Under the pieces are notes generated by a model. That model did no database searches. It saw nothing but the letters and a program-made list of their open reading frames with translations, and had not been told where the DNA came from. The translations under genes and the position numbers were made by a program. A stretch of 23,496 bases of DNA from Kofleriaceae bacterium (lineage in GTDB: Bacteria; Myxococcota_A; Polyangia; Haliangiales; Haliangiaceae), in the NCBI GenBank assembly GCA_046597055.1, contig JBKJLC010000174.1:1-23496 (forward strand), in the 5' to 3' direction. Below, piece after piece: positions 4,419 to 17,686 of this stretch; position 1 is the first letter of the stretch; the number at the start of each line of letters is the position of its first letter.

Positions 4419-4787
4419 TCAGTGCGCAGCGGCATTGCGCAGCTCGGGGTGCTCGTCGAGCCACGACTTCAGACTCTCCTCGCTGATCTCCACGACCACA
4501 TCGTCGCCCGCGGCGACGCAGGCCTGGCAGCCGAGGCGCGACTCGGGTCGCACGTCGAACGCCTTGTCCATGATGTCGTTCTCCTTGTCAGAGATCTCGC
4601 CCAGCGAGTCGAGCCCCTGCTCGACATAGATGTGGCAGGTCGAGCAGGCGAGGTTGCCACCGCAGGCGTGGCCGACCCGGGCGTCGCAGCTCTCCGCCGC
4701 GTCGAGGATCGACGTCCCGGGCGCGACGTCGATCGTGAGCTTGGCGGAGCCGGGCCCCTGGGGATTGAGGAACGTCAGCTTGGTCAC
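4419..4787 (-). CDS. fdx: ISC-type [2Fe-2S] ferredoxin
   Basis: Last 122 aa of ORF 4419..5954: [16 protein letters not shown]...SRLGCQ. GTG start overlaps the hscA stop (GTGA). Confidence 0.93.
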
Positions 4788-6691
4788 GAGTGGCCTCCCG
4801 GCGCGTGCGCGGGATCGGCACCGAGCTCGTGCTCGACCTCGCCGATCGTCTTGCCCTTCATCGCCGCCTCGATGGCGAGGTTCATCCGGCGCTCCGCGAA
4901 CGGCTTGGACGCCCGATCGAGCGCCTCGATCGCCGCGCGGATCGCGAGGTGATCGTCGGTGGCAACGATCCGCGCCAGCTCGGCGATCGCGGCCTGGGTG
5001 GCCACCTCGACCTCGGGCTCCAGCAGGTGCGCGTCCTTCACCATCGCGGTCCGGGTCGCCACCAGGATGCGCTCGGCCTCGACCCGCTCGATGCGGAGGT
5101 TGCGCAGCACCAGGTCGTCCTCCGCGTGCTCGAACGACTCGATCAGCATGCGCTCGACCTCCTCGTCGGTGAGCCCGTACGACGGCTTGACCTGGATCGA
5201 GGCCTCGATCCCGCTGTGGACCTCGCGGGCCTGCACGCTGAGGATGCCGTTGGCGTCGACGTTGTAGGTGATGTCGACCCGGGCCGCGCCGGCGACCATC
5301 GGCGGCACGCCGCGGAGCTGGAACCGGGCCAGCGAGCGGCACGCGTCGGCGGTCTCGCGTTCGCCCTGCACGACGTGCAGGTCGAAGCCGGTCTGCTGGT
5401 CGGCGTAGGTCGTGAACGTCTGGGTCGCGCCGCACGGGATGGTCGAGTTGCGCGCGATCAGCTTCTCGACCACGCCGCCCATCGTCTCGATGCCGAGCGA
5501 CAGCGGCACCACGTCGAGCAAGATGACGTCGCTGCTGCCACCGGCGAGCACGTCGGCCTGCACCGCGGCCCCGAGCGCGACCACCTGCTCGGGGTCGAGC
5601 TCGCACAGCGGCTCCTTGCCGAACACCGCGCGGACGTGATCGCGCACGATCGGCGAGCGGGTCGAGCCGCCAACCAGCACCACGCCGTCGAGGTCGTCGG
5701 CGCCGAGCTCGGCGTCCTTCAGCACCCGCCGGCACGCGCGGGCGGTGCGCTCGAGCAGCGGCGCGCAGATCGCGACCAGGTCGGCGCGGGTGATCCGGCG
5801 CTCGATGGTCTGGCCCGCGGCGCCGAACGCGATGATGGTCTCGCCCGACTCGGTCAGACGGTGCTTGGCCGCGCGCGCGGCCGCCAGCGCGATGGTGAGC
5901 TCGCGGCGGCCGTCGCTGTCGGTTGCGGGCGCGACCTCCTGGCCGGTTGCCCACGCCATGATCGCATGATCGATGTCGTCACCGCCGAGCGCCGAGTCGC
6001 CGCCGGTCGCCTTGACCTCGAACACGCCGTCGACCAGCGTCAGGATCGAGACGTCGAAGGTCCCGCCGCCGAGATCGTAGACGGCGTACACCCCGCGGGT
6101 GCCGCGATCGAGCCCGTAGGCGAGCGCGGCCGCGGTCGGCTCGGCCACCAGGCGCAACACCTCGAGGCCGGCCAGGCGCCCGGCGTCGCGGGTGGCCTGA
6201 CGCTGGGCGTCGTCGAAGTAGGCCGGGACCGTGATCACCGCGCCGTCGAGCGGTCCGTCCAGGGCCAGCTCGGCGCGCCGCCGGAGCTCCTTCAGGATCT
6301 CGGCCGAGACCTGCACCGGCGACACCTCGCGCCCATCGGACAGGCGGATCTTGACCATGCGGCCGGCGTCATCGACCAGGTGGTTGGGCGTGCGCAGCGT
6401 GCCGAGGTCGGCGAGCGCGCGCCCCATCAGCCGCTTGACGCTGGCGATGGTGTCGACCGGATCGTCGACCCCGCCGAGCAGCGCCGCGCGGCCGAGCCGC
6501 ACCTCGCTGCCTCGGTAGCCGACCACCGACGGCAGGAGGCCATCGCCCTCACCTCCGCGGATCACCACCGGCGACGTGTCCGCGACGTGGGCGACCAGCG
6601 AGTTGGTCGTCCCGAGATCGATGCCGACCACGCGCTTCTTGCACGCGGCCTTGGCGGCATCCTGGCCAGGCTCCGCAATCTGCAACAGCAT
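4784..6691 (-). CDS. hscA: Fe-S protein assembly chaperone HscA (Hsp70 family)
   Basis: [10 protein letters not shown]-terminus typical of Hsc[41 protein letters not shown]; located between hscB and fdx. Confidence 0.95.
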
Positions 6692-6712: not shown

Positions 6713-7249
6713 TCAGGCCTCGTCCTCGAGCGCCACGTCGCATTCCTCGAGGTACCGAGAGACGTAGCGCAGGGTGATCAGGTGGCGCTTGGCCACCGCG
6801 AGCGAGCCGGCATCGCCGGCCGCGAACAGCGGCGCCAGCTGGTCGAGGATCGACCGCTGGCGCGCCTTCATGGTCGCCGCGTGGCGCGCGACCTCGTCGA
6901 GCCGACCGGCGTGGCGGGCCTCGGCCAGCTCCTCGCGCAGCTCGAGAATCTCGGTCAAAAACGTGGGATCGAGGCGCTCGTGATCGCCGATCGCGAGGCC
7001 GGCGCGGGTCAGCAGGTGCTCGGCACGGCTCTGGGGCCGACGCAGCACCTGGTACGCGTCGTTGAGCGCCCGGGTGCGGATCAACGCCTGGGCGCGCTCG
7101 GACGCCGGTGCGTTGGCGAACCGGTCGGGGTGGATCTCGCGGCTGCGCTCGCGAAAGCGCGCCTCGAGCGAGGCCACGTCCACGTCGAAGCGCGGCTCGA
7201 GGCCCAGCACCGCGAACGGATCGGGGGTGGTGGCTGACTCGGTCGACAT
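6713..7249 (-). CDS. hscB: Fe-S co-chaperone HscB (J-domain)
   Basis: DPFAVLGL...IHPDRFA (HPD motif)...LNDAYQVLRRPQSRAEHLL...FLTEILELREEL. Start placed at ATG 7249. Confidence 0.93.
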   Translation of the reverse strand: MSTESATTPDPFAVLGLEPRFDVDVASLEARFRERSREIHPDRFANAPASERAQALIRTRALNDAYQVLRRPQSRAEHLLTRAGLAIGDHERLDPTFLTEILELREELAEARHAGRLDEVARHAATMKARQRSILDQLAPLFAAGDAGSLAVAKRHLITLRYVSRYLEECDVALEDEA

Positions 7250-7266
7250 CACGGAGGCCCGGCCAG

Positions 7267-7674
7267 CTAGAACTGGACCGACTCCCCGCACCCGCACTCG
7301 CCCTTGGCGTTCGGGTTGTTGAACTTGAAGCCGTGACCCATCATCCCCTTCACGAAGTGGAGCTCCATCCCCCGGAGGTACACGAAGCTCTTGGGGTCGG
7401 TGACGACGGTGACCCCGTGGGCGGTGAAGACCTTGTCGGTCGGGCGCGGCTCGTCGGCCCACTCGAAGACGTAGGTGAAGCCCGTGCAGCCGCCGCCGCG
7501 GATGCCGACGCGGATCGCGGCAGCCGACGTGCCGCGCTTGTCACGCTGGCGCGCGATCTCCTCGCCGGCAGCGGCGGTGATCACGATGACGGTCGACGCG
7601 GCCGCCGCCTTGGCAGGTTCGGCGGCGGGCGGCGGAGAGGTCGCGGCGGATGCGGATTGGGTCGTCATCATCAA
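7267..7674 (-). CDS. iscA: A-type Fe-S carrier IscA
   Basis: GGGCTGFTY and C-terminal [18 protein letters not shown]; located within the isc operon. Confidence 0.93.
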
Positions 7675-7702: not shown

Positions 7703-8098
7703 TCAGCTGGCCGCCTTGGCGACCTGCTGCTTCTTCTTGTAGTCCTCGACCGCGGCCTTGATCGCGTCCTCGGCGAGCACCGAGCAGTGGATCTTGACCG
7801 GCGGCAGGTTGAGCTCCTGCACGATCTGCGTGTTCTTGATCGAGGCGGCCTGATCGAGCGTCATGCCCTTGATCATCTCGGTCGCCAGCGATGACGACGC
7901 GATCGCCGAGCCGCATCCGAACGTCTTGAACTTCGCGTCCTCGATGACGCCGTCCTTGACCCGGATCTGCAGCTTCATCACGTCGCCGCACGCAGGTGCG
8001 CCGACGAGCCCGGTTCCGACGTCGTCCGCATCCTTGCCGAACGAGCCGACGTTGCGGGGGTTCTCGTAGTGTTCGATGACCTTGTCGGAGTACGCCAT
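7703..8098 (-). CDS. iscU: Fe-S scaffold IscU
   Basis: [39 protein letters not shown] and LPPVKIHCS (HscA-recognition LPPVK). Confidence 0.98.
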
Positions 8099-8157: not shown

Positions 8158-9456
8158 TCAGTGCGGGGTCCACTTGATGGATGCGATGTCGATGCCGTCC
8201 TGGTGCATCTCCCACAGCGGGGAAAGCTCGCGGAGACGCAGCACCGACTTCACGACCAGCTCGATCGTGTAGTCGATCTCGGCCTCGGTGTTGAACCGAC
8301 CGATGCCGAAGCGGATCGAGGTGTGGGCCAGCTCCTCGCCGACGCCGAGCGCACGGAGCACGTAGCTCGGCTCGAGCGAGGCCGAGGTGCAGGCCGAGCC
8401 CGACGACACCGCGATGTCCTTGAGCGCCATCAGCATGCTCTCGCCCTCGACGAAGGCGAACGAGATGTTGAGGTTGCCGGGCAGCCGGTGCTCGAGCGAG
8501 CCGTTCACATAGGTCTCGGTGAGCTGGCGGGTGAGGCCTTGATAGAGGCGGTCGCGCAGGGCCCCCAGGCGGATGGCCTCGTCGGCCATGTCGGCCTTGG
8601 CGACCTCGGCGGCCCTGCCGAAGCCGACGATCAGCGGAACCGGCAGGGTGCCCGAGCGCATGCCGCGCTCGTGACCGCCACCGTCGATGATGGGGTCGAT
8701 GCGCACGCGCGGCCTGCGACGCACCCACAGCGCGCCGATGCCCTTGGGACCGTACATCTTGTGTGCGGTCAGCGAGACCAGGTCGAGCTTCATCGCCTCG
8801 ACGTCGAGCGGCACCTTGCCGGCGGCCTGAACCGCGTCGGAATGGAACAGGGTCTTGGGGTTCTTGGCCTTGATCGCGGCGCCGATGGCGGCGAGCGGCT
8901 GGACCACGCCGATCTCGTTGTTGGCCGCCATGATGGAGACCAGGATCGTCTTGTCGGTGACCGCGCCGGCGACCTGCTCGGGGGTGACCAGGCCGTCCTT
9001 GGCCGGCTTGAGGTAGGTCACCTCGTAGCCCTCACGGGTGAGGCGCTTGCACGTGTCGAGGATCGCCTTGTGCTCGGTCTCGACCGTGATGATGTGGTTG
9101 CCCAGCTTCTTGTAGAACGTCGCGACGCCCTTGATCGCGAGGTTGTCGGCCTCGGTGGCACCCGAGGTGAAGACGATCTCCTTGGCATCGCCGCCGATGA
9201 GCGCGGCGACCTGTGCGCGCGCGTGCTCGACCGCGGCCTCCGCGGTCCAGCCGAACGAGTGGTTGCGGCTGGCGGCGTTGCCGAAGTGCTCGGTGAAGTA
9301 CGGCAGCATGGTCTCGAGCACCCGCGGATCGACCCGGGTCGTCGAGTGGTTGTCGAGGAAGATCGGCAACTTGATGCCGTCGGGCGCGAGCGAAAGCGAG
9401 TCGCGCTGGGTCGCGCCGTTGCCGTTCGTGCTGCTGGTGGCGGTGGTGGCGGTCAT
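8158..9456 (-). CDS. iscS: Cysteine desulfurase IscS
   Basis: [37 protein letters not shown] (PLP Lys), SSGSACTS catalytic Cys loop, [10 protein letters not shown]. Confidence 0.97.
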
Positions 9457-9459
9457 GTG

Positions 9460-10092
9460 TCAGTTGCCCTGCGAATTGGGGTGAGGATGACGCGGGGAGT
9501 CGGGCGCTGCGCTCGCCACTGTGGCGTCGGCGGAATCGGCGTCCTTCACGAGGTCGCCGACCGGAACGTCGAACTCGCGACGGCGGTGCGGCTCCGGGCG
9601 CTCGTCGGGGCGGCGCGACAGCCCGGCAAACAGCCGGGGTGCCTTGTCTCGATCGTGACCGTGGTGCCCGCACACGCCGCACTCGGTCGGCGCGTAGTCG
9701 GTCGAGCAGGCCTGACACGAGTCCAGATACGCGAGCGCCTCGTGGAGATCGTTCTCGATCACCTGGAGCTGCGTGATCTGGTCCCGGATCTCACCGAGCT
9801 TGCCGCGGAACACCGAGCGCGCGCGGTCGGTCGCCTGCTTGCCGCTGCCGGCATCGCGGAACTCGTGGACGAAGCCCTGAATCTCCGGGAGGGTGAAGCC
9901 GATCGCCTGGAGCTTGACGATCCACAGGATGCGATCGATCGCCTCGCGGCCGTACATGCGGAAGCCGCCCTCGGAGCGGGCCATCGGCTCGAGCAGGCCC
10001 AGCTCCTCGTAGAGGTGCATGGCGCGTACGGTCTTGCCGACCGCCTTTGCCAGCTCTCCCACTCGCAGGAGCTTTTCGTCGGGTTTCTGCAT
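9460..10092 (-). CDS. MerR-family transcriptional regulator with C-terminal Cx2Cx8Cx2C-GHHGH motif; first gene of the isc operon
   Basis: MerR wHTH LRVGELAKAVGKTVRAMHLYEELGLLEPMARSEGGFRMY, GFTLPEI, long coiled-coil, then CQACSTDYAPTECGVCGHHGH. Stop lies 3 nt from the iscS ATG. Start placed at ATG 10092. Confidence 0.9.
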   Translation of the reverse strand: MQKPDEKLLRVGELAKAVGKTVRAMHLYEELGLLEPMARSEGGFRMYGREAIDRILWIVKLQAIGFTLPEIQGFVHEFRDAGSGKQATDRARSVFRGKLGEIRDQITQLQVIENDLHEALAYLDSCQACSTDYAPTECGVCGHHGHDRDKAPRLFAGLSRRPDERPEPHRRREFDVPVGDLVKDADSADATVASAAPDSPRHPHPNSQGN

Positions 10093-10105: not shown

Positions 10106-10136
10106 AGCCTAACCCTCACGTGTACGTGAGGTTCTA
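10106..10136 (-). promoter_or_regulatory. MerR-type promoter: TAGAAC-N19-TAGGCT containing an 18-bp palindromic operator (10114-10131)
   Basis: Minus strand TAGAAC CTCACGTACACGTGAGGGT TAGGCT: 19-bp spacer with the perfect 8-2-8 inverted repeat CCTCACGT-AC-ACGTGAGG. Confidence 0.75.
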
Positions 10137-10178: not shown

Positions 10179-10185
10179 CGTCCAA

Positions 10186-10203
10186 TCTCACCTTTACGTG
10201 CGG
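10186..10203. promoter_or_regulatory. Second, degenerate copy of the MerR operator
   Basis: Minus strand CCGCACGTAAAGGTGAGA has 14/18 identity to CCTCACGTACACGTGAGG and lies 72 bp upstream of it. Confidence 0.55.
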
Positions 10204-10354
10204 CTCAGCTCTCAGAGTTAAGAGCACTTACCGTCGCGCGCACGCGGTGATGTGAACAGTCGTAGTGAGCGCGCGCACGTCGCCCAACGGCCGTGCGTTC
10301 CCTGATGCTCATCGCCCTGGTGCTGATCGGCCGCCCGCTCTGCCGGTGACCAGG

Positions 10355-11923
10355 TCAGGAGGCGGTGGCGACCGCCTCGTAGGCGCGGATCACGGTCACC
10401 TTGATCTGGCCGGGGAACGTCATCTCCTCGGAGATGCGGGCTGCGATCTCGCTCGATAGCTCGACCACCGCCAGGTCATCGAGTTCGCGCTCGCGGACAT
10501 ACACCCGCAGCTCACGGCCGCCGTGGACTGCATGGGCGCGGTCAACCCCGCGATAGGAGGCGCCAATCCGCTCGAGGTCCTCGACCTTGGTCGAGAATCC
10601 CTCGGCCGCCTCCCGGCGGGCGCCAGGTCGGGCGCCGCTCATCGCATCGGCGGCCGCCACCAGGTAGGCGTAAGGCGAGTTGCAGGGCTCGTCGGCGTGG
10701 TGGGAGCCGATGGCGTTGGCGACCACCTCGGACTCGCCGAGCCGGCGGGCGATCTCGGCGCCGATGACCGCGTGCGAGCCCTCGATCTTGTGGGTCAGCG
10801 CCTTCCCGATGTCGTGCATCAGGGTCGCGCGGCGGGCCAGCTTCTCGTCCAGGCCCAGCTCGGCGGCCATCATCCCGGCCAGGAACGACGCTTCGACCGC
10901 GTGCAGCCACTGGTTCTGGGTGTAGCTGGTGCGCCAGTTCAGGGCGCCGACCAGCTCGACGATCTCGGGGTGAGCGCGGGCGACGCCCAGGGTCTGGAAC
11001 GCCTTCTTGCCGAGCGTGCGCACCTCGGCATCGAGGCTCTCCCGGATCTTGTTGGCCCAGGTCCGGGCCTCGTCGGCCGAGTGGGGTGTGGTCTCCGGCT
11101 TCTTGGCGAGTCGGGTCAGCGCGCGGCGCGCGACCTCCTTGCCGAGCGGGTCGAGGCCGTCGAGCCGGACGCTGGTCTCGCTCTCGCCGATCAACAGCTT
11201 CACGCCGGCGATCTCTTCGAGGGCGGCATGCAGCGTGAGGTTGTTGCGGGTCAGCGCCTCCATCACCGGCGGGTCGACCCGGATGTTCGAGATGTTCCGC
11301 TCGGTCAGGAAGTGCATCTGGCAACGGGCCGAGGCGATCTCCATGACGCGCTTGGCCTCGCGGTCGGTCGCGGGGTCAGCGGCCATGTGCTCGATCTCGC
11401 GCAGGCGCGCGGCGGCTTCGGCCCGCGCGGTCTCGGTCCAGCTCTGGCCGAGCTGGGCGATGAGCCCGGCGCCGCTGGTCCCCGCGCGCTCCTCGAGCAG
11501 CAGGCGCGCCTCGCGGCGGCGGCGGTCGTTGTCCTGACTCAGCCCGCTGGCGCGATCGGCGCGGGTCCGCCGCTCGCGCTCGTCGGCATCGAGCAGCGCC
11601 TCGCGCTGACCGAGCGCCTCGACGTCGGACTCGATGACCGCGCGCGCGATCATCACGGCGCGCTCGCGATCGACCACCGCCTGGGCCGCTGCGTCGATCT
11701 CGTCGAGCGCGGTCTCGCGGACGACCAGCGTCTCCTGGCGGGCGGCGCTCTCCTCCTCGCTGACCCGCGCGGCCGCCTCGAGCCGGGCCGCCGTGGTCAC
11801 GGCCCGCGCCTCGCGCTGCGCCGCGTCGAGCACCGCGTGGGCCTCGCGGCGCGCGCGCTGGTAGACGGCGGCGAACGCGATCGCACCGGCGAGCACTCCG
11901 AGGACGATGGCGGGGATCAGCAC
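10355..11923 (-). CDS. rny: Ribonuclease Y homologue (N-terminal membrane anchor, coiled coil, divergent KH, HD domain)
   Basis: N-terminal TM segment VLIPAIVLGVLAGAIAFAAVY, long coiled coil, RTSYTQNQWLH, LMHDIGKAL, GSHAVIG, SHH, AADAMSGARPGARRE, GRELRVYV, FPGQIKVTVIR. Start (GTG 11923) uncertain. Confidence 0.88.
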   Translation of the reverse strand: MLIPAIVLGVLAGAIAFAAVYQRARREAHAVLDAAQREARAVTTAARLEAAARVSEEESAARQETLVVRETALDEIDAAAQAVVDRERAVMIARAVIESDVEALGQREALLDADERERRTRADRASGLSQDNDRRRREARLLLEERAGTSGAGLIAQLGQSWTETARAEAAARLREIEHMAADPATDREAKRVMEIASARCQMHFLTERNISNIRVDPPVMEALTRNNLTLHAALEEIAGVKLLIGESETSVRLDGLDPLGKEVARRALTRLAKKPETTPHSADEARTWANKIRESLDAEVRTLGKKAFQTLGVARAHPEIVELVGALNWRTSYTQNQWLHAVEASFLAGMMAAELGLDEKLARRATLMHDIGKALTHKIEGSHAVIGAEIARRLGESEVVANAIGSHHADEPCNSPYAYLVAAADAMSGARPGARREAAEGFSTKVEDLERIGASYRGVDRAHAVHGGRELRVYVRERELDDLAVVELSSEIAARISEEMTFPGQIKVTVIRAYEAVATAS

Positions 11924-12001
11924 CGCGGGCCAGCTTCCCGCATGTAGGACCGCGGCGCAACGTGTGGATCGGTGCCAGCCCGCCCACGGCACCGTCTCAG
12001 A

Positions 12002-13855: not shown

Positions 13856-15004
13856 TCAGGTGGCGTGACAGAACGCGGGGTAGTCGATCAGCTCGATCTG
13901 TCGGCGATCGACCCCGTCGCCGCAGGTGCGACAGGTCGGATCACGCCGCAGCGTGAGCTCACGGAACCGCGCGCGCAGGGCGTCGTAGACCAGCAGGCGG
14001 CCGGCGATGGTGGGCTGATCGAGGACGAGCTTGATCGCCTCGGTCGCCTGCAGGACGCCCATCACGCCGGGCAGCACCCCGAGCACCCCGGCCTCCTGGC
14101 ACGACGGCGCCGCGCCCGGCGGTGGCGGCGCCGGGTACAGGCACCGATAGCAAGGCGCGCCGGCGGCCGGGAACACCGTGAGCTGACCCTCGAAGCGATA
14201 GATCGAGGCGTGCACCACCGGCTTGCCCAGCCGCAGCGCGACGTCGTTCAGCAGGTAGCGGGTGGCGAAGTTGTCGGCCCCGTCGATCACCAGGTCGTAG
14301 CCGGCGACCAGCTCGAGCGCGTTATCGCGGGTGAGCCGGACCCGATGCCCCACCAGCTTCACGTCGGGGTTGAGCGCACCCAGCGTGCGCATCGCGCTCT
14401 CGACCTTGGGCATCCCGATGCGATCGGTCGTGTGCACGACCTGGCGCTGCAGGTTGGAGGCGTCGACCACGTCGTCGTCGACCAGCCCGAGCGTGCCGAT
14501 GCCCGCCGCCGCCAGGTAGAGGCTGGCCGGCGAGCCGAGGCCGCCGGCGCCGAGGCACAGGACGCGCGCGGCCAGCAGCCGCTGCTGCCCGACCTCGCCG
14601 ACCTCAGGCAGCAGCAGGTGCCGCGCGTAGCGCGCACGCTGCGCCGGGGTCAGGCCACCCGGATCCACCGCGACCGGCCGCCCGGCCTGCTTCCAGGCGG
14701 TGAAGCCGCCCGCCATCGACGCGACGTCGCGGAAGCCGAGCCGGCGCAGGGTGTCGGCGCCGAGCACCGAGCGATTGCCGCTCGCGCAGTACAGCACCAC
14801 CCGCGCGTCGCGGTCGGGGACCGCTGCGTCGATGCGCTGCTCGAGGAAGCCGCGCGGGATCACGCGCGCGCCCGGGATGCGTCCGGCCGCCACCTCGTCG
14901 GGCTCGCGCACGTCGATCAAGATCTCGTCACCGACCACGTCGGCCGGCGTGACCTCGCGGATGGTGGCCCGGAGATCGCGAAGATAGGCGTCGTACGCCG
15001 GCAT
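13856..15004 (-). CDS. moeB: Rhodanese-ThiF/MoeB fusion (MoeZ/MoeBR-like sulfur-carrier adenylyltransferase)
   Basis: N-terminal rhodanese (IDVREPDE...YCASGNRS...GGFTAW) followed by E1-like domain: RYARHLLLPEVG, GAGGLGS, DDDVVDASNLQRQ, DNFATRY, CYRC and CRTC Zn motifs, PSCQEAGVLG. Confidence 0.9.
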   Translation of the reverse strand: MPAYDAYLRDLRATIREVTPADVVGDEILIDVREPDEVAAGRIPGARVIPRGFLEQRIDAAVPDRDARVVLYCASGNRSVLGADTLRRLGFRDVASMAGGFTAWKQAGRPVAVDPGGLTPAQRARYARHLLLPEVGEVGQQRLLAARVLCLGAGGLGSPASLYLAAAGIGTLGLVDDDVVDASNLQRQVVHTTDRIGMPKVESAMRTLGALNPDVKLVGHRVRLTRDNALELVAGYDLVIDGADNFATRYLLNDVALRLGKPVVHASIYRFEGQLTVFPAAGAPCYRCLYPAPPPPGAAPSCQEAGVLGVLPGVMGVLQATEAIKLVLDQPTIAGRLLVYDALRARFRELTLRRDPTCRTCGDGVDRRQIELIDYPAFCHAT

Positions 15005-15184
15005 GGGCCGGCATCCTATCAGCGCCCCGGGCCCGCGGCGGCTGTCGGCGCTCCGCGCCCACGCTGGGGGCGGGGGCCGGCGAACCGCCTCACCGTTGCC
15101 AGGCCGTGCCCGCGGGAGCGAAACCCGGCGGCCTCACGTCTCCTTGCTGTACCATCGTCGTCTTCATCTGGTTGGAGGTCGTCG

Positions 15185-16423
15185 ATGGGGCGCGCAATTT
15201 ACCTCGTGAGCCTGCTGGTGGTGGTGGGTTGCGGACACGTCGTGGACCAGGCCGGCTCCGACGCGGCTTCCCCCGGCTCCACCGGGTCGAGCTGCGCGTC
15301 GAGCGCGGATTGCACCACTGGCGACTGCGTGGACGGCTTCTGCTGCGCCAGCACCTGTGACCAGACCTGTGCCGCCTGCTCGAACGCCAAGACCGGTGCG
15401 CCCAACGGCACCTGTGCACCGGTGGCGCTCGGTCAGGATCCCGATGACGAGTGCATCGACGACGGTGCCACGTCTTGCGATCGCAGCGGCAGCTGCAATG
15501 GCGACGCCGCCGCGCCGGCGTGCGGGCTGTATCCGGCGACCACGGTGTGCGCCGCCGACCGCTGCACGGCAGGGATGCTGATCAGCTCGACCTGCAGCGG
15601 CGGCGGCTCGTGCGAGCCCGCCGCCGCGTCTTGCGCGCCGTACCTGGCCTGCAACAGCGCCGGCACCGCCTGCCAGGCGAGCTGCACCAGCGACGGGGCC
15701 TGCGCCGCGGGCAACCACTGCGACCGGGTCAACTCGGTCTGCACCAGCGTGCTGCGCGTGGCGATCCCGATCGCGGTGGGCTCGCGGTGTCGCGACGCTA
15801 ACGAGTCCCTCACCGCGTTCGCCAACCTGCTGATCGCGCGCGGCCACATCGCGACGATCGTGGCGCCGGCCGAGCTCGACACCCTCGCCGAGCTGCAGGC
15901 CTACGACGTCGTGATCCCGACCGGGGTCAACTGCGCGGGCAACAGCAGCGCCGAGGCCATCGCGACCTACGGCGCCTACAGCCCCAACATCAGCGCATAC
16001 ATCAGCGGCGGCGGTGGCCTGGTCGCCGCGGGTTGGGTGCTGTTTGGCACCAATCTGAACGCGGCCGGGGCGATCGCGGCTGAGCTGCCGACCATTCGGA
16101 GCGATGCCTTCACGGCGGGCTCGCCGGCCATGACCGTGGTCGCCGGCCATCCCATCACGGCCGGGGTGGCGGGGTTCATCGCCGGCGACTACAGCGTGGA
16201 GGCGGGCGGTACCAAACCGACTGCCACCACCCTGCTCACCAACCCGGCGGGCGCCGCGGCCGGCGCAGCCTGGCCGAGGGGGCTCGGGCGGACGGTGTAC
16301 CTGGCGCCGCCCTACTTCGAGCCGTGGAGCGCCTACACCAACGAGAACCTGCTCGATGGCAGCCAGCCGAGCTCGATCGCGCTGGTCATCCGCGCGGTCG
16401 AGTGGGCCGGGCACAACCTTTGA
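15185..16423 (+). CDS. Cys-rich lipoprotein with C-terminal class I glutamine-amidotransferase/ThuA-like domain
   Basis: C-terminal part of ORF 13283..16423. MGRAIYLVSLLVVVG-C lipobox; 24 Cys in about 150 aa (CVDGFCC...CAPYLAC repeats); then YDVVIP...YISGGGGLV...HPITAGV...GRTVYL. The C-terminal domain call is by eye. Confidence 0.78.
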   Translation: MGRAIYLVSLLVVVGCGHVVDQAGSDAASPGSTGSSCASSADCTTGDCVDGFCCASTCDQTCAACSNAKTGAPNGTCAPVALGQDPDDECIDDGATSCDRSGSCNGDAAAPACGLYPATTVCAADRCTAGMLISSTCSGGGSCEPAAASCAPYLACNSAGTACQASCTSDGACAAGNHCDRVNSVCTSVLRVAIPIAVGSRCRDANESLTAFANLLIARGHIATIVAPAELDTLAELQAYDVVIPTGVNCAGNSSAEAIATYGAYSPNISAYISGGGGLVAAGWVLFGTNLNAAGAIAAELPTIRSDAFTAGSPAMTVVAGHPITAGVAGFIAGDYSVEAGGTKPTATTLLTNPAGAAAGAAWPRGLGRTVYLAPPYFEPWSAYTNENLLDGSQPSSIALVIRAVEWAGHNL

Positions 16424-16432
16424 TCGGGCCGG

Positions 16433-16466
16433 TTACCCGCCGGAGCCACCCGGGTCCACCGGGTAA
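16433..16466. terminator. Possible hairpin terminator between convergent genes
   Basis: TTACCCG...CGGGTAA inverted repeat with inner GGA/TCC pairing; no U-tract. Confidence 0.3.
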
Positions 16467-16524
16467 GTCCGCACGTGACGGGCCCGTCGGCAGCGGAGGG
16501 ACCTGACGGTGGGGACCGCGGCGG

Positions 16525-16998
16525 CTAGCTGTCCATACGGTGGCGCAGCACGTCGAGCACGAACCGGCGCAGGCGGCGCTCGTGGCCGTCGCTCGGCTGC
16601 TCGGCGACCGAGATGCGCAGGATGCCGCCGGTCACCTCGCGGATGATGCCGCGCACCCGCAGGCCCTGCTCATCGGTCGGCGAGTCGACCCGCATCTCGA
16701 CGTGGGTGCCAACCACCCAGCGACCGGTGGTCTCGACCTGAACCCCGCCGGGTCCGATCGAGCGGACCCGGGCATCGAACGCCTGGTCCTTGTTGCGCAG
16801 CTTGATCTCGAGATCACACGGCATCCCCTCGCCGCCGGGCTTGTCGTCCGCGATCAGCGCCAGGATGCAGCGCTCGACCGCGGACCGCTCGACCGCGTCT
16901 TCGGGGGACCAGCCCACCGGGGTCCGACGGCCATCCAGATCCTGGAGCCGGTCGGCAAGCTGGGGGAACGTCATGTTTTCGAGGGCACTGTGTTCCAT
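16525..16998 (-). CDS. PilZ-like domain protein (degenerate c-di-GMP motifs)
   Basis: PCDLEIKL...ARVRSIGPGGVQVET...VGTHVEMRV...LRVRGIIR beta-barrel pattern with C-terminal helix; GGAG SD-like element upstream of ATG 16998. Confidence 0.65.
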   Translation of the reverse strand: MEHSALENMTFPQLADRLQDLDGRRTPVGWSPEDAVERSAVERCILALIADDKPGGEGMPCDLEIKLRNKDQAFDARVRSIGPGGVQVETTGRWVVGTHVEMRVDSPTDEQGLRVRGIIREVTGGILRISVAEQPSDGHERRLRRFVLDVLRHRMDS

Positions 16999-17213
16999 CG
17001 AGGTCTCCACTCGACCACTCTCACCAGTACTTAATGTCGCATGCAATACAAGAATTACTGCCTACAGGGGCGGACGTAGGGAGAGGTGAGTACACGCGCA
17101 CCGCCGGTCCGCCGACCCAACCTGTGACCATCGTTCGCAGCACGTGATGACCGGCGCGCCTGCCCGATGTGGGAGGACGGGCTAGGCGATCCTCGGTGAC
17201 TCGGGCATGCGTG

Positions 17214-17242
17214 TTGCCAAGGACGTCCCTGATAGGTACGTT
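17214..17242 (+). promoter_or_regulatory. Putative sigma70 promoter TTGCCA-N17-TACGTT for erpA-glcD
   Basis: Exact 17-bp spacing, followed by a short hairpin (17252-17270), GGAGG SD at 17271-17275 and ATG 17282. Confidence 0.55.
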
Positions 17243-17281
17243 GTGCGGACATGCCGGCTCGACACCGGCAGGAGGCACCCG

Positions 17282-17686
17282 ATGGCCACCCTATTTCGCG
17301 AGACCAGCACTGTTCCCCAGACTCCGCCCCCGTCCGCCGACCAGCCGGTCGCGCTCGATACCCTCGTTGGACTGACCCCGCTCGCCGCGGCCAAGGTCAA
17401 CGAGATCCGTGAGGCGGAGACGATCGAGACCGAGATGGGCCTTCGGCTGCGCGTGGTGGGCGGTGGCTGCGCCGGCTTCAGCTACGATCTCTACTTCGAT
17501 GCGCCCAGCGAGGTCGACCAGCAGTTCGAAGTGCAGGGCGTCCGCGTGGTCGTCGACGAGATGAGCCTGATGTACCTGGTCGGCACCGAGATCGACTACG
17601 TCGAGGGCCTGCAGGGCGCGGGCTTCAAGTTCCAGAACCCGAACGTGAAGTCGACCTGCGGCTGCGGCTCGTCCTTCAGCGTCTGA
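17282..17686 (+). CDS. erpA: A-type Fe-S carrier / insertion protein (ErpA-like HesB family)
   Basis: LRLRVVGGGCAGFSY...DYVEGLQGAGFKFQNPNVKSTCGCGSSFSV; strong SD GGAGG. ErpA versus another A-type carrier subclass is inference. Confidence 0.85.
   Translation: MATLFRETSTVPQTPPPSADQPVALDTLVGLTPLAAAKVNEIREAETIETEMGLRLRVVGGGCAGFSYDLYFDAPSEVDQQFEVQGVRVVVDEMSLMYLVGTEIDYVEGLQGAGFKFQNPNVKSTCGCGSSFSV

Follow-up and report, generated by a model that had tools for sequence, protein, structure and literature searches.

A MerR-family protein with a conserved four-cysteine motif heads the isc operon of a Kofleriaceae bacterium and is a predicted regulator of Fe-S cluster assembly

We analyzed a 23,496-nt stretch of DNA from a Kofleriaceae bacterium (the window hereafter), in which a gene for a MerR-family regulator leads an isc operon and is followed in order by iscSUA-hscBA-fdx. 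Its closest relatives carry the labels Kofleriaceae, Haliangiales or Myxococcales, which makes a Kofleriaceae-type myxobacterium very likely as the host. The genes and features are listed below by their positions in the window.

4419..4772, minus strand: fdx, [2Fe-2S] ferredoxin; below the cut-off of the ISC ferredoxin model, start approximate
4784..6691, minus strand: hscA, chaperone; NCBIfam match above cut-off
6713..7252, minus strand: hscB, co-chaperone; NCBIfam match above cut-off
7267..7674, minus strand: iscA, A-type carrier; passes the general A-type carrier model only
7703..8098, minus strand: iscU, scaffold; NCBIfam match above cut-off
8158..9456, minus strand: iscS, cysteine desulfurase; NCBIfam match above cut-off
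9460..10092, minus strand: MerR-family regulator gene; 210-aa ORF, ATG at 10092
9655..9717, minus strand: motif C126-x2-C129-x8-C138-x2-C141-x-H143-x-G-H146 at the end of the dimerisation helix
9871..10065, minus strand: winged helix-turn-helix (HTH) DNA-binding domain (MerR_1); Pfam match and structure model
10112..10133, no strand assigned: operator-like palindrome O2, core CCTYACGT-N2-ACGTRAGG; 36.8 bits, best in the genome
10150..10178, minus strand: predicted sigma-70 promoter TTGACT-17-CATAGT; kept in 78 of 78 sufficiently long upstream regions
10184..10205, no strand assigned: weaker palindrome O1; 23.2 bits, second-best in the genome
17207..17686, plus strand: erpA-like A-type carrier gene; likely start near 17282

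The stop codon of the regulator gene ends at 9460 and the iscS ATG lies at 9456, leaving a 3-nt gap, so that the earlier note on this DNA was right in placing a MerR gene directly before iscS. Because this gap has no terminator-like site, iscS is predicted to be co-transcribed from the regulator's promoter. The regulator frame is open further upstream to a GTG at 10227, and the ATG at 10092 was taken as the start since the promoter falls within that upstream stretch. A misassigned frame was ruled out by the 210-aa translation together with Pfam matches above cut-off to MerR_1 (PF13411), MerR-DNA-bind (PF09278) and MerR (PF00376). No Rfam match was found within the window. An RNase Y-like gene (window 10355-11992) lies directly upstream in most Kofleriaceae-type loci, with no evident operon link. 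As the earlier note had stated, the window contains no Rrf2/IscR gene; in fact, a whole-genome Rrf2 search gave two matches, neither of them on this contig. The match above cut-off has a single Cys in its available part and precedes a probable FAD oxidoreductase gene, and the second match is weak and lies at a contig end; an IscR or RisR encoded elsewhere in the genome thus appears unlikely. A RisR-type site at the regulator promoter was rejected, given that the strict consensus was matched in only 3 of 77 Kofleriaceae-type promoters and its cores were not conserved. SufBD was not found in the source genome (94% complete).

The regulator has the architecture of the MerR superfamily, with a winged HTH at the N terminus and a long dimerisation helix behind it. 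In the predicted structure (mean pLDDT 85), the winged HTH is accompanied by a 46-residue helix (84-129) ending at C129; confidence is lowest in the Cys loop, with a pLDDT of about 60-70. All fold and sequence matches listed for the regulator were MerR proteins, and no solved structure among them covers the Cys4 loop. The motif reads C126-Q-A-C129-x8-C138-G-V-C141-G-H143-H-G-H146 and lies where the dimerisation helix ends, the position of the metal loop in SoxR, CueR and ZntR. The earlier note had placed it at the very end of the protein; the four Cys and the H-x-G-H are present, but a low-complexity tail of about 65 residues follows them. A short F-D-V-P-like motif (window 9535-9580 region) is kept in this otherwise variable tail in 71 of 80 Kofleriaceae-type loci. 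The NCBIfam scores of the regulator to CueR, ZntR, MerR, CadR and SoxR were all less than half of the curated cut-offs. Specifically, the regulator scored 64.1 with TIGR02044 (CueR; cut-off 147.4) and 42.4 with TIGR01950 (SoxR; cut-off 116.9), and the best metal-sensor models, with cut-offs of 143-168, gave 53-64 bits.

The four Cys and the H-x-G-H were kept in all 80 related loci, which are those confirmed of 88 from a genome scan, and the spacing between the two Cys pairs was 8 residues in 74 loci and 7 in 6. Conservation of the Cys among iscS-linked homologues, on which the earlier note had made its proposal hinge, was thus complete in these close relatives. In the source genome, CxxC-x7-9-CxxC was found in just 3 of 3849 comparable ORFs, and against its presence in 80 of 80 related loci this rules out a chance motif. 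Furthermore, the Cys4 motif was present in all 50 phylum loci examined, and the four motif Cys are among only 10 invariant columns across 44 aligned phylum members. Linkage to iscS, which the earlier note had proposed to survey, was similarly well kept. The next gene was iscS in 77 of the 80 close relatives, and the remaining 3 loci end at a contig edge within 110 nt of the stop codon. Among 301 phylum genomes, 78 yielded a total of 85 profile matches at an E-value of 1e-34 or better, the next match being at 1e-25, and when 50 of the 85 were examined, 43 preceded iscS and 7 preceded an ECF sigma gene. These seven ECF-linked copies are second copies, all in family f36.

Several variants of this arrangement were observed. 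The second copy in f36 keeps Cys4 and the same site and is coupled to the ECF sigma gene, with a queG-like gene often about 1.6 kb downstream, and two other genomes have the same ECF sigma gene with the site and no regulator match there. The window's own family includes a hybrid operon, merR-iscS-iscA-sufB... (L209, G244), from which iscU, hscB and hscA are absent; locus L079 reads merR-iscS-iscA, also without these three genes. In addition, isc operons lacking iscU (iscS-iscA-hscB-hscA; L122, L124, L128, L134) occur in genomes that have suf under the same site.

A quick tree was built from 75 proteins. The members linked to isc, suf or ECF genes fell together in it (52 rows) with an SH-aLRT of 83, which is below the 95 mark, and 17 distant Cys4 MerR proteins were separate and lacked the palindrome. 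The distant group carries CxxC-x7-10-CxxC and adjoins mostly folE, DUF2203 or LON-domain genes. One of its members (L148) heads iscS-iscU behind a different palindrome-like upstream sequence. Since the distant Cys4 group lacks the site, the Cys motif alone does not imply Fe-S control. An Atlas search returned only unnamed MerR clusters, commonest in Myxococcota; there was no cultured strain among the named members listed for 10 clusters, and the plasmids searched contained only distant metal-sensing MerR proteins. Comparative genomics supports the distinct MerR subfamily proposed in the earlier note.

We compared 80 upstream regions (79 relatives and the window), two of which were too short; one further locus had no anchor. 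The promoter consensus among the 78 was TTGAC(A)-17-CATAGT, and an independent promoter scan gave the same promoter in the window. One copy of the 22-bp palindrome lies on each side of this promoter, O1 just upstream of the -35 box and O2 beyond the -10 box, within the predicted 5' leader, 72 bp apart in the window. Neither the promoter nor the two palindromes figure in the earlier note. In 73 of 78 promoters, 18-19 nt separate the -10 box from O2, which was the better matched copy, with at least 15 of 16 positions in 52 of 78 versus 10 of 78 for O1. When the site matrix, whose training set included the window's own O1 and O2, was run on the 8.4-Mb genome, only two sites exceeded 18 bits, both at the regulator promoter, and five shuffled matrices gave none. 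The third-best genome site (C94, 17.3 bits) was taken as chance because it lies within an ORF and near the shuffled-matrix background. In the phylum sample, the site was present within 700 nt in 47 of 50 loci.

Canonical MerR activators need a spacer of 19-20 bp with the operator inside it, as described in the available text of two sources (PMC5045206; PMC11672702), and E. coli soxS shows this layout, with its site inside a 19-bp spacer. On the other hand, the spacer of the regulator promoter was 16-18 bp in all 78 regions (17 in 71, 18 in 6 and 16 in 1) and never 19-20, and a good site between the -35 and -10 boxes occurred in just one of the 78, where the spacer was 17 bp. The 17-bp spacer and the palindromes outside it suggest a promoter laid out for repression. 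We consider it likely that the regulator represses, since the promoter is already spaced by 17 bp and a dimer bound at the strong site, beyond the -10 box, would stand in the way of initiation.

The palindrome was associated with the regulator across genomes. It occurred with at most one mismatch in 71 of 77 regulator-positive genomes (124 sites; 23 for a reversed-pattern control), compared with 7 of 77 SufBD-positive, regulator-negative genomes (7 sites, none perfect; control 28), and none of the latter seven sites was beside an evident Fe-S gene start. Among the 120 loci listed when metagenomes were scanned for the exact site, 82 adjoined a regulator-family gene; of the rest, 33 had no MerR match (many are short), 2 had a distant MerR, and 3 had an unrelated MerR, the last of which speaks against the site being the regulator's own. 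All 44 full-length metagenome genes encode Cys4; 38 precede iscS and 2 precede an A-type carrier gene, and four have no recognised next gene in the available DNA. In one metagenome locus checked, sufC follows the A-type carrier gene. The palindrome is therefore strongly, yet not exclusively, tied to the regulator family, as far as sequence comparison goes, and is very probably its binding site. Note that very low-GC contigs (L255, L267, L285, L316) carry the exact palindrome in a common context with MerR absent nearby, where it is probably a different element. On a low-GC metagenome contig (L259), the exact palindrome precedes genes for a TusA-like sulfurtransferase and an unrelated MerR protein.

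Thirty-five of the listed matches lay away from the regulator gene (trans sites), and 18 of these 35 precede genes for Fe-S biogenesis or cysteine supply, namely sufB (7), cysteine synthase (5, two of them copies within one genome), erpA (3), nfuA-like genes with a NifU domain (2) and hscA (1). Seven others precede regulatory genes (ECF-type sigma 5, RpoH-like 1, Crp-type 1), and ten have no assigned target, in agreement with the chance rate. No metal-efflux, iron uptake, peroxide defence or zinc transport gene was found at the 35 listed trans sites. In Kofleriaceae-type loci that reach erpA, the erpA site was present in 13 of 15 and lay over the -10 box; the erpA gene of the window has no site. 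Relatives have erpA and a rhodanese-ThiF (moeB-like) gene in divergent orientation, the palindrome lying between them, and in the window (13856-17686) about 2.2 kb of other genes part the rhodanese-ThiF gene from erpA, whose promoter is without a site. Among 12 regulator-positive SufBD genomes, one has suf in the regulator operon and nine have the site before sufB (seven with at most one mismatch, two with 2). The two suf operons without a site are that of G164, which has its own Rrf2, and that of G240, where nothing was found.

We also asked which regulator holds the isc slot elsewhere. By comparison of two match lists, IscU was above cut-off in 92 of 301 phylum genomes, 67 with and 25 without the regulator; SufBD is present in each of the 11 regulator-positive genomes that lack IscU. 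Of the 25 regulator-negative genomes, 20 were fetched and one was cut by a contig end. In the 19 isc loci left, an Rrf2 gene lay directly before iscS in 10, a RisR-type GAC-N7-GTC site in 8 and neither clearly in 1, and the palindrome was found in none of the 19. All four of these Rrf2 genes that were scanned passed the Rrf2 cut-off. Since these genomes are kin, largely of two or three families, the pattern represents few swaps, not 19. In families f18 and f45, isc starts with a three-Cys Rrf2 gene, and RisR-type sites lie before iscS without an adjacent regulator in f16 and f28, which likely widens the range of RisR-like control. In G004, a distant Cys4 MerR precedes iscS. As for the substitution for IscR suggested in the earlier note, the position in the slot otherwise held by Rrf2 and the sites at Fe-S genes support it, whereas control of isc transcription by the regulator is a prediction.

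Like IscR and RisR, the regulator is encoded by the first gene of an Fe-S operon and has predicted sites at isc, suf and carrier genes, and it is highly likely to be a dedicated regulator of Fe-S biogenesis. Its regulon and the slot swap point to Fe-S supply as the likely signal. Our preferred reading, to which we give a probability of about 0.55, is that the regulator represses Fe-S assembly genes via the promoter-flanking palindromes, probably sensing supply through an Fe-S cluster on the Cys4 motif. Specifically, a regulator dimer would bind O2 and O1 and hold down its own operon and unlinked assembly genes. The ISC system would mature the regulator, and the holo form would keep the operon down. 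On cluster shortage or oxidation, the regulator would release the DNA, as do IscR and RisR. MerR proteins generally keep their operator affinity on inducer binding, according to the accessible text of one source (PMC11672702), so that such a release mechanism would be atypical. Against an Fe-S regulon in the source genome stand the restriction of sites above 18 bits to the regulator's own promoter and the bare erpA promoter. In addition, 17 of the 35 listed trans sites lie elsewhere than at Fe-S or cysteine genes, and the genomes compared are kin rather than independent samples.

With respect to the cofactor, we somewhat favor the Cys4 motif as a putative Fe-S cluster site loaded by ISC. The first CxxC aligns with the first two cluster ligands of SoxR, and the rest of the loop differs. 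In human anamorsin, a CX2CX7CX2C motif binds a [2Fe-2S] cluster (PMC8251831, in its available part). It is also possible, though less likely, that regulon and repression are the same and that Cys4 holds a single Zn(II) or Fe(II) in knuckles of the zinc-ribbon or rubredoxin type, the signal being free iron or thiol oxidation. RecR-type C4 zinc fingers have a similar Cys spacing. Clustering at 50% gave 218 representatives at an E-value of 1e-30 or better; among the best 150 of these, 132 cover the motif region and 122 of the 132 match, with linkers of 6-16 residues. In the ten that do not match, the second pair reads Cx3C (2), cysteines have been lost (3), or both pairs are retained around a longer linker (at least 4). 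Because the linker between the pairs varies so freely, from 6 to more than 30 residues among distant representatives, a two-knuckle site for one metal fits at least as well as a cluster. Extra His residues behind the motif in 40 of 50 loci and folE next to the distant Cys4 group in 3 of 17 loci also favor a single ion. However, the predicted targets are genes for cluster assembly, carriers and cysteine supply, with none for iron uptake, peroxide defence or zinc transport at the 35 listed trans sites; the slot regulators elsewhere, IscR and RisR, bind clusters, as stated in the available part of PMC9973013; and no zinc-finger Pfam family among the 25 listed matches more than one of 44 members. 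Copper or zinc sensing, which the earlier note had offered as an option, found no support, given that none of the 35 listed trans sites is at a metal-efflux gene and that the alpha-5 Cys of the ZntR/MerR/CadR type is absent in 50 of 50 loci, with no Cys 25-55 residues before the motif.

The repression in our preferred reading would be only part of the matter if the regulator were a dual regulator or activator, in which O1 would serve to recruit or reposition RNA polymerase in one state of the cofactor, and O2 only to limit the regulator's own synthesis. In support of this, the distance between O1 and the -35 box is fixed at 6-8 nt in 77 of 78 promoters, and O1 lies 70-74 bp, about seven helical turns, from O2; the nearest site is O1-like, just upstream of TTGAC, in 5 phylum loci; and most MerR proteins are activators, as described in part of the literature (PMC11672702). 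We nevertheless regard such activation as improbable, since the promoter is near-consensus with a 17-bp spacer and O2 is the better site. Furthermore, 35 of the 47 phylum sites are found 38-59 nt beyond the start of a -35 box and 2 overlap the -10 box, where the erpA site also lies; the other 10 lack a -35 box at that distance, and no site at activator distance was found among the 47. A CueR-, ZntR- or SoxR-like metal or redox sensor that only regulates itself, and that stands before iscS by inherited gene order, would fit the best NCBIfam scores (CueR and ZntR, both below cut-off), the many database copies named 'copper efflux regulator' and the restriction of strong sites in the source genome to the regulator's own promoter, but is very improbable given named-family scores under half of the cut-offs, the 3-nt gap without a terminator-like site that puts iscS under the same promoter, the recurrence of the site at unlinked suf, erpA, nfuA-like and cysteine synthase genes, and the occupation of the slot by Rrf2 where the regulator gene is missing.

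Full-text literature searches, with few subscription papers covered, showed no MerR regulator of Fe-S assembly among the titles and abstract starts listed, and the subfamily is apparently undescribed. The regulators of Fe-S biogenesis named in the available part of PMC9973013 are Rrf2 proteins (IscR, RisR) or SufR with its ArsR-like domain. If our reading is true, a MerR protein would be a further independent solution to Fe-S regulation, and a cofactor-gated MerR repressor would run against the family rule that inducers alter DNA shape and not affinity. The common annotation as 'copper efflux regulator' would then also be corrected. We rate at even odds a new class of Fe-S regulators that has the MerR fold, dispenses with DNA-twisting activation, carries a cluster on CxxC-x8-CxxC and swaps with Rrf2 proteins by lineage. 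This class would repress a convergently assembled, IscR-like regulon of isc, suf, erpA, nfuA, cysteine synthase and, in some lineages, sigma genes, in about a quarter of sampled Myxococcota. The predicted site, targets and ligands make the regulator directly testable.

The regulator resembles and differs from several known systems. IscR of E. coli and Yersinia is likewise encoded by the first isc gene, and its negative feedback would have a counterpart in that predicted for the regulator. In Yersinia, isc carries two IscR sites, and erpA and nfuA carry a single one each, according to the available text of PMC4055776, which is the same layout as that predicted for the regulator. However, IscR has an Rrf2 fold, three Cys, a [2Fe-2S] cluster and another DNA site, whereas the regulator has a MerR fold and CxxC-x8-CxxC, matching only MerR families and not the Rrf2 winged helix, so that the two are not homologues. 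RisR of Myxococcus xanthus (Rrf2 group IS6) comes from the same phylum as the regulator's host and represses isc and suf via one site overlapping the promoters (PMC9973013, in its available part); it differs in its Rrf2 fold and its GAC-N7-GTC site. MliR is also a MerR-superfamily protein tied to iron physiology and, as described in the accessible part of PMC9478572, has no effector domain and no cysteines, unlike the regulator with its four invariant Cys. The curated models closest to the regulator are those of CueR, ZntR, CadR/PbrR and MerR, which are also among its closest solved folds. ZntR, MerR and CadR-PbrR have a Cys at the start of helix alpha-5 and a CCx3Hx4C or two-Cys loop (PMC11672702, in the text available). 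In contrast, the regulator has another metal loop and lacks the alpha-5 Cys, the 19-20 bp promoter and efflux targets. CueR holds linear Cu(I) in a two-Cys loop and controls copper efflux, and with four Cys of other spacing and no efflux gene at the 35 listed trans sites the regulator is set apart from CueR too. SoxR, a MerR-family protein with a [2Fe-2S] cluster (reference points TIGR01950 and PDB 2zhg), has the same fold and likewise carries its Cys ligands at the end of the dimerisation helix, and the core of the soxS dyad differs from that of the regulator's palindrome at two symmetric positions. Its motif CxxCxCx5C, quoted in the earlier note in agreement with the E. coli sequence, was not found in the regulator on alignment with E. 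coli SoxR; SoxR activates from inside a 19-bp spacer and has a redox-stress output, and the regulator differs in its motif, its promoter layout and its predicted targets. From sequence comparison, the regulator thus appears to be a MerR member outside SoxR, CueR, ZntR/MerR/CadR, MliR and IscR/RisR, with a predicted function like that of IscR and RisR.
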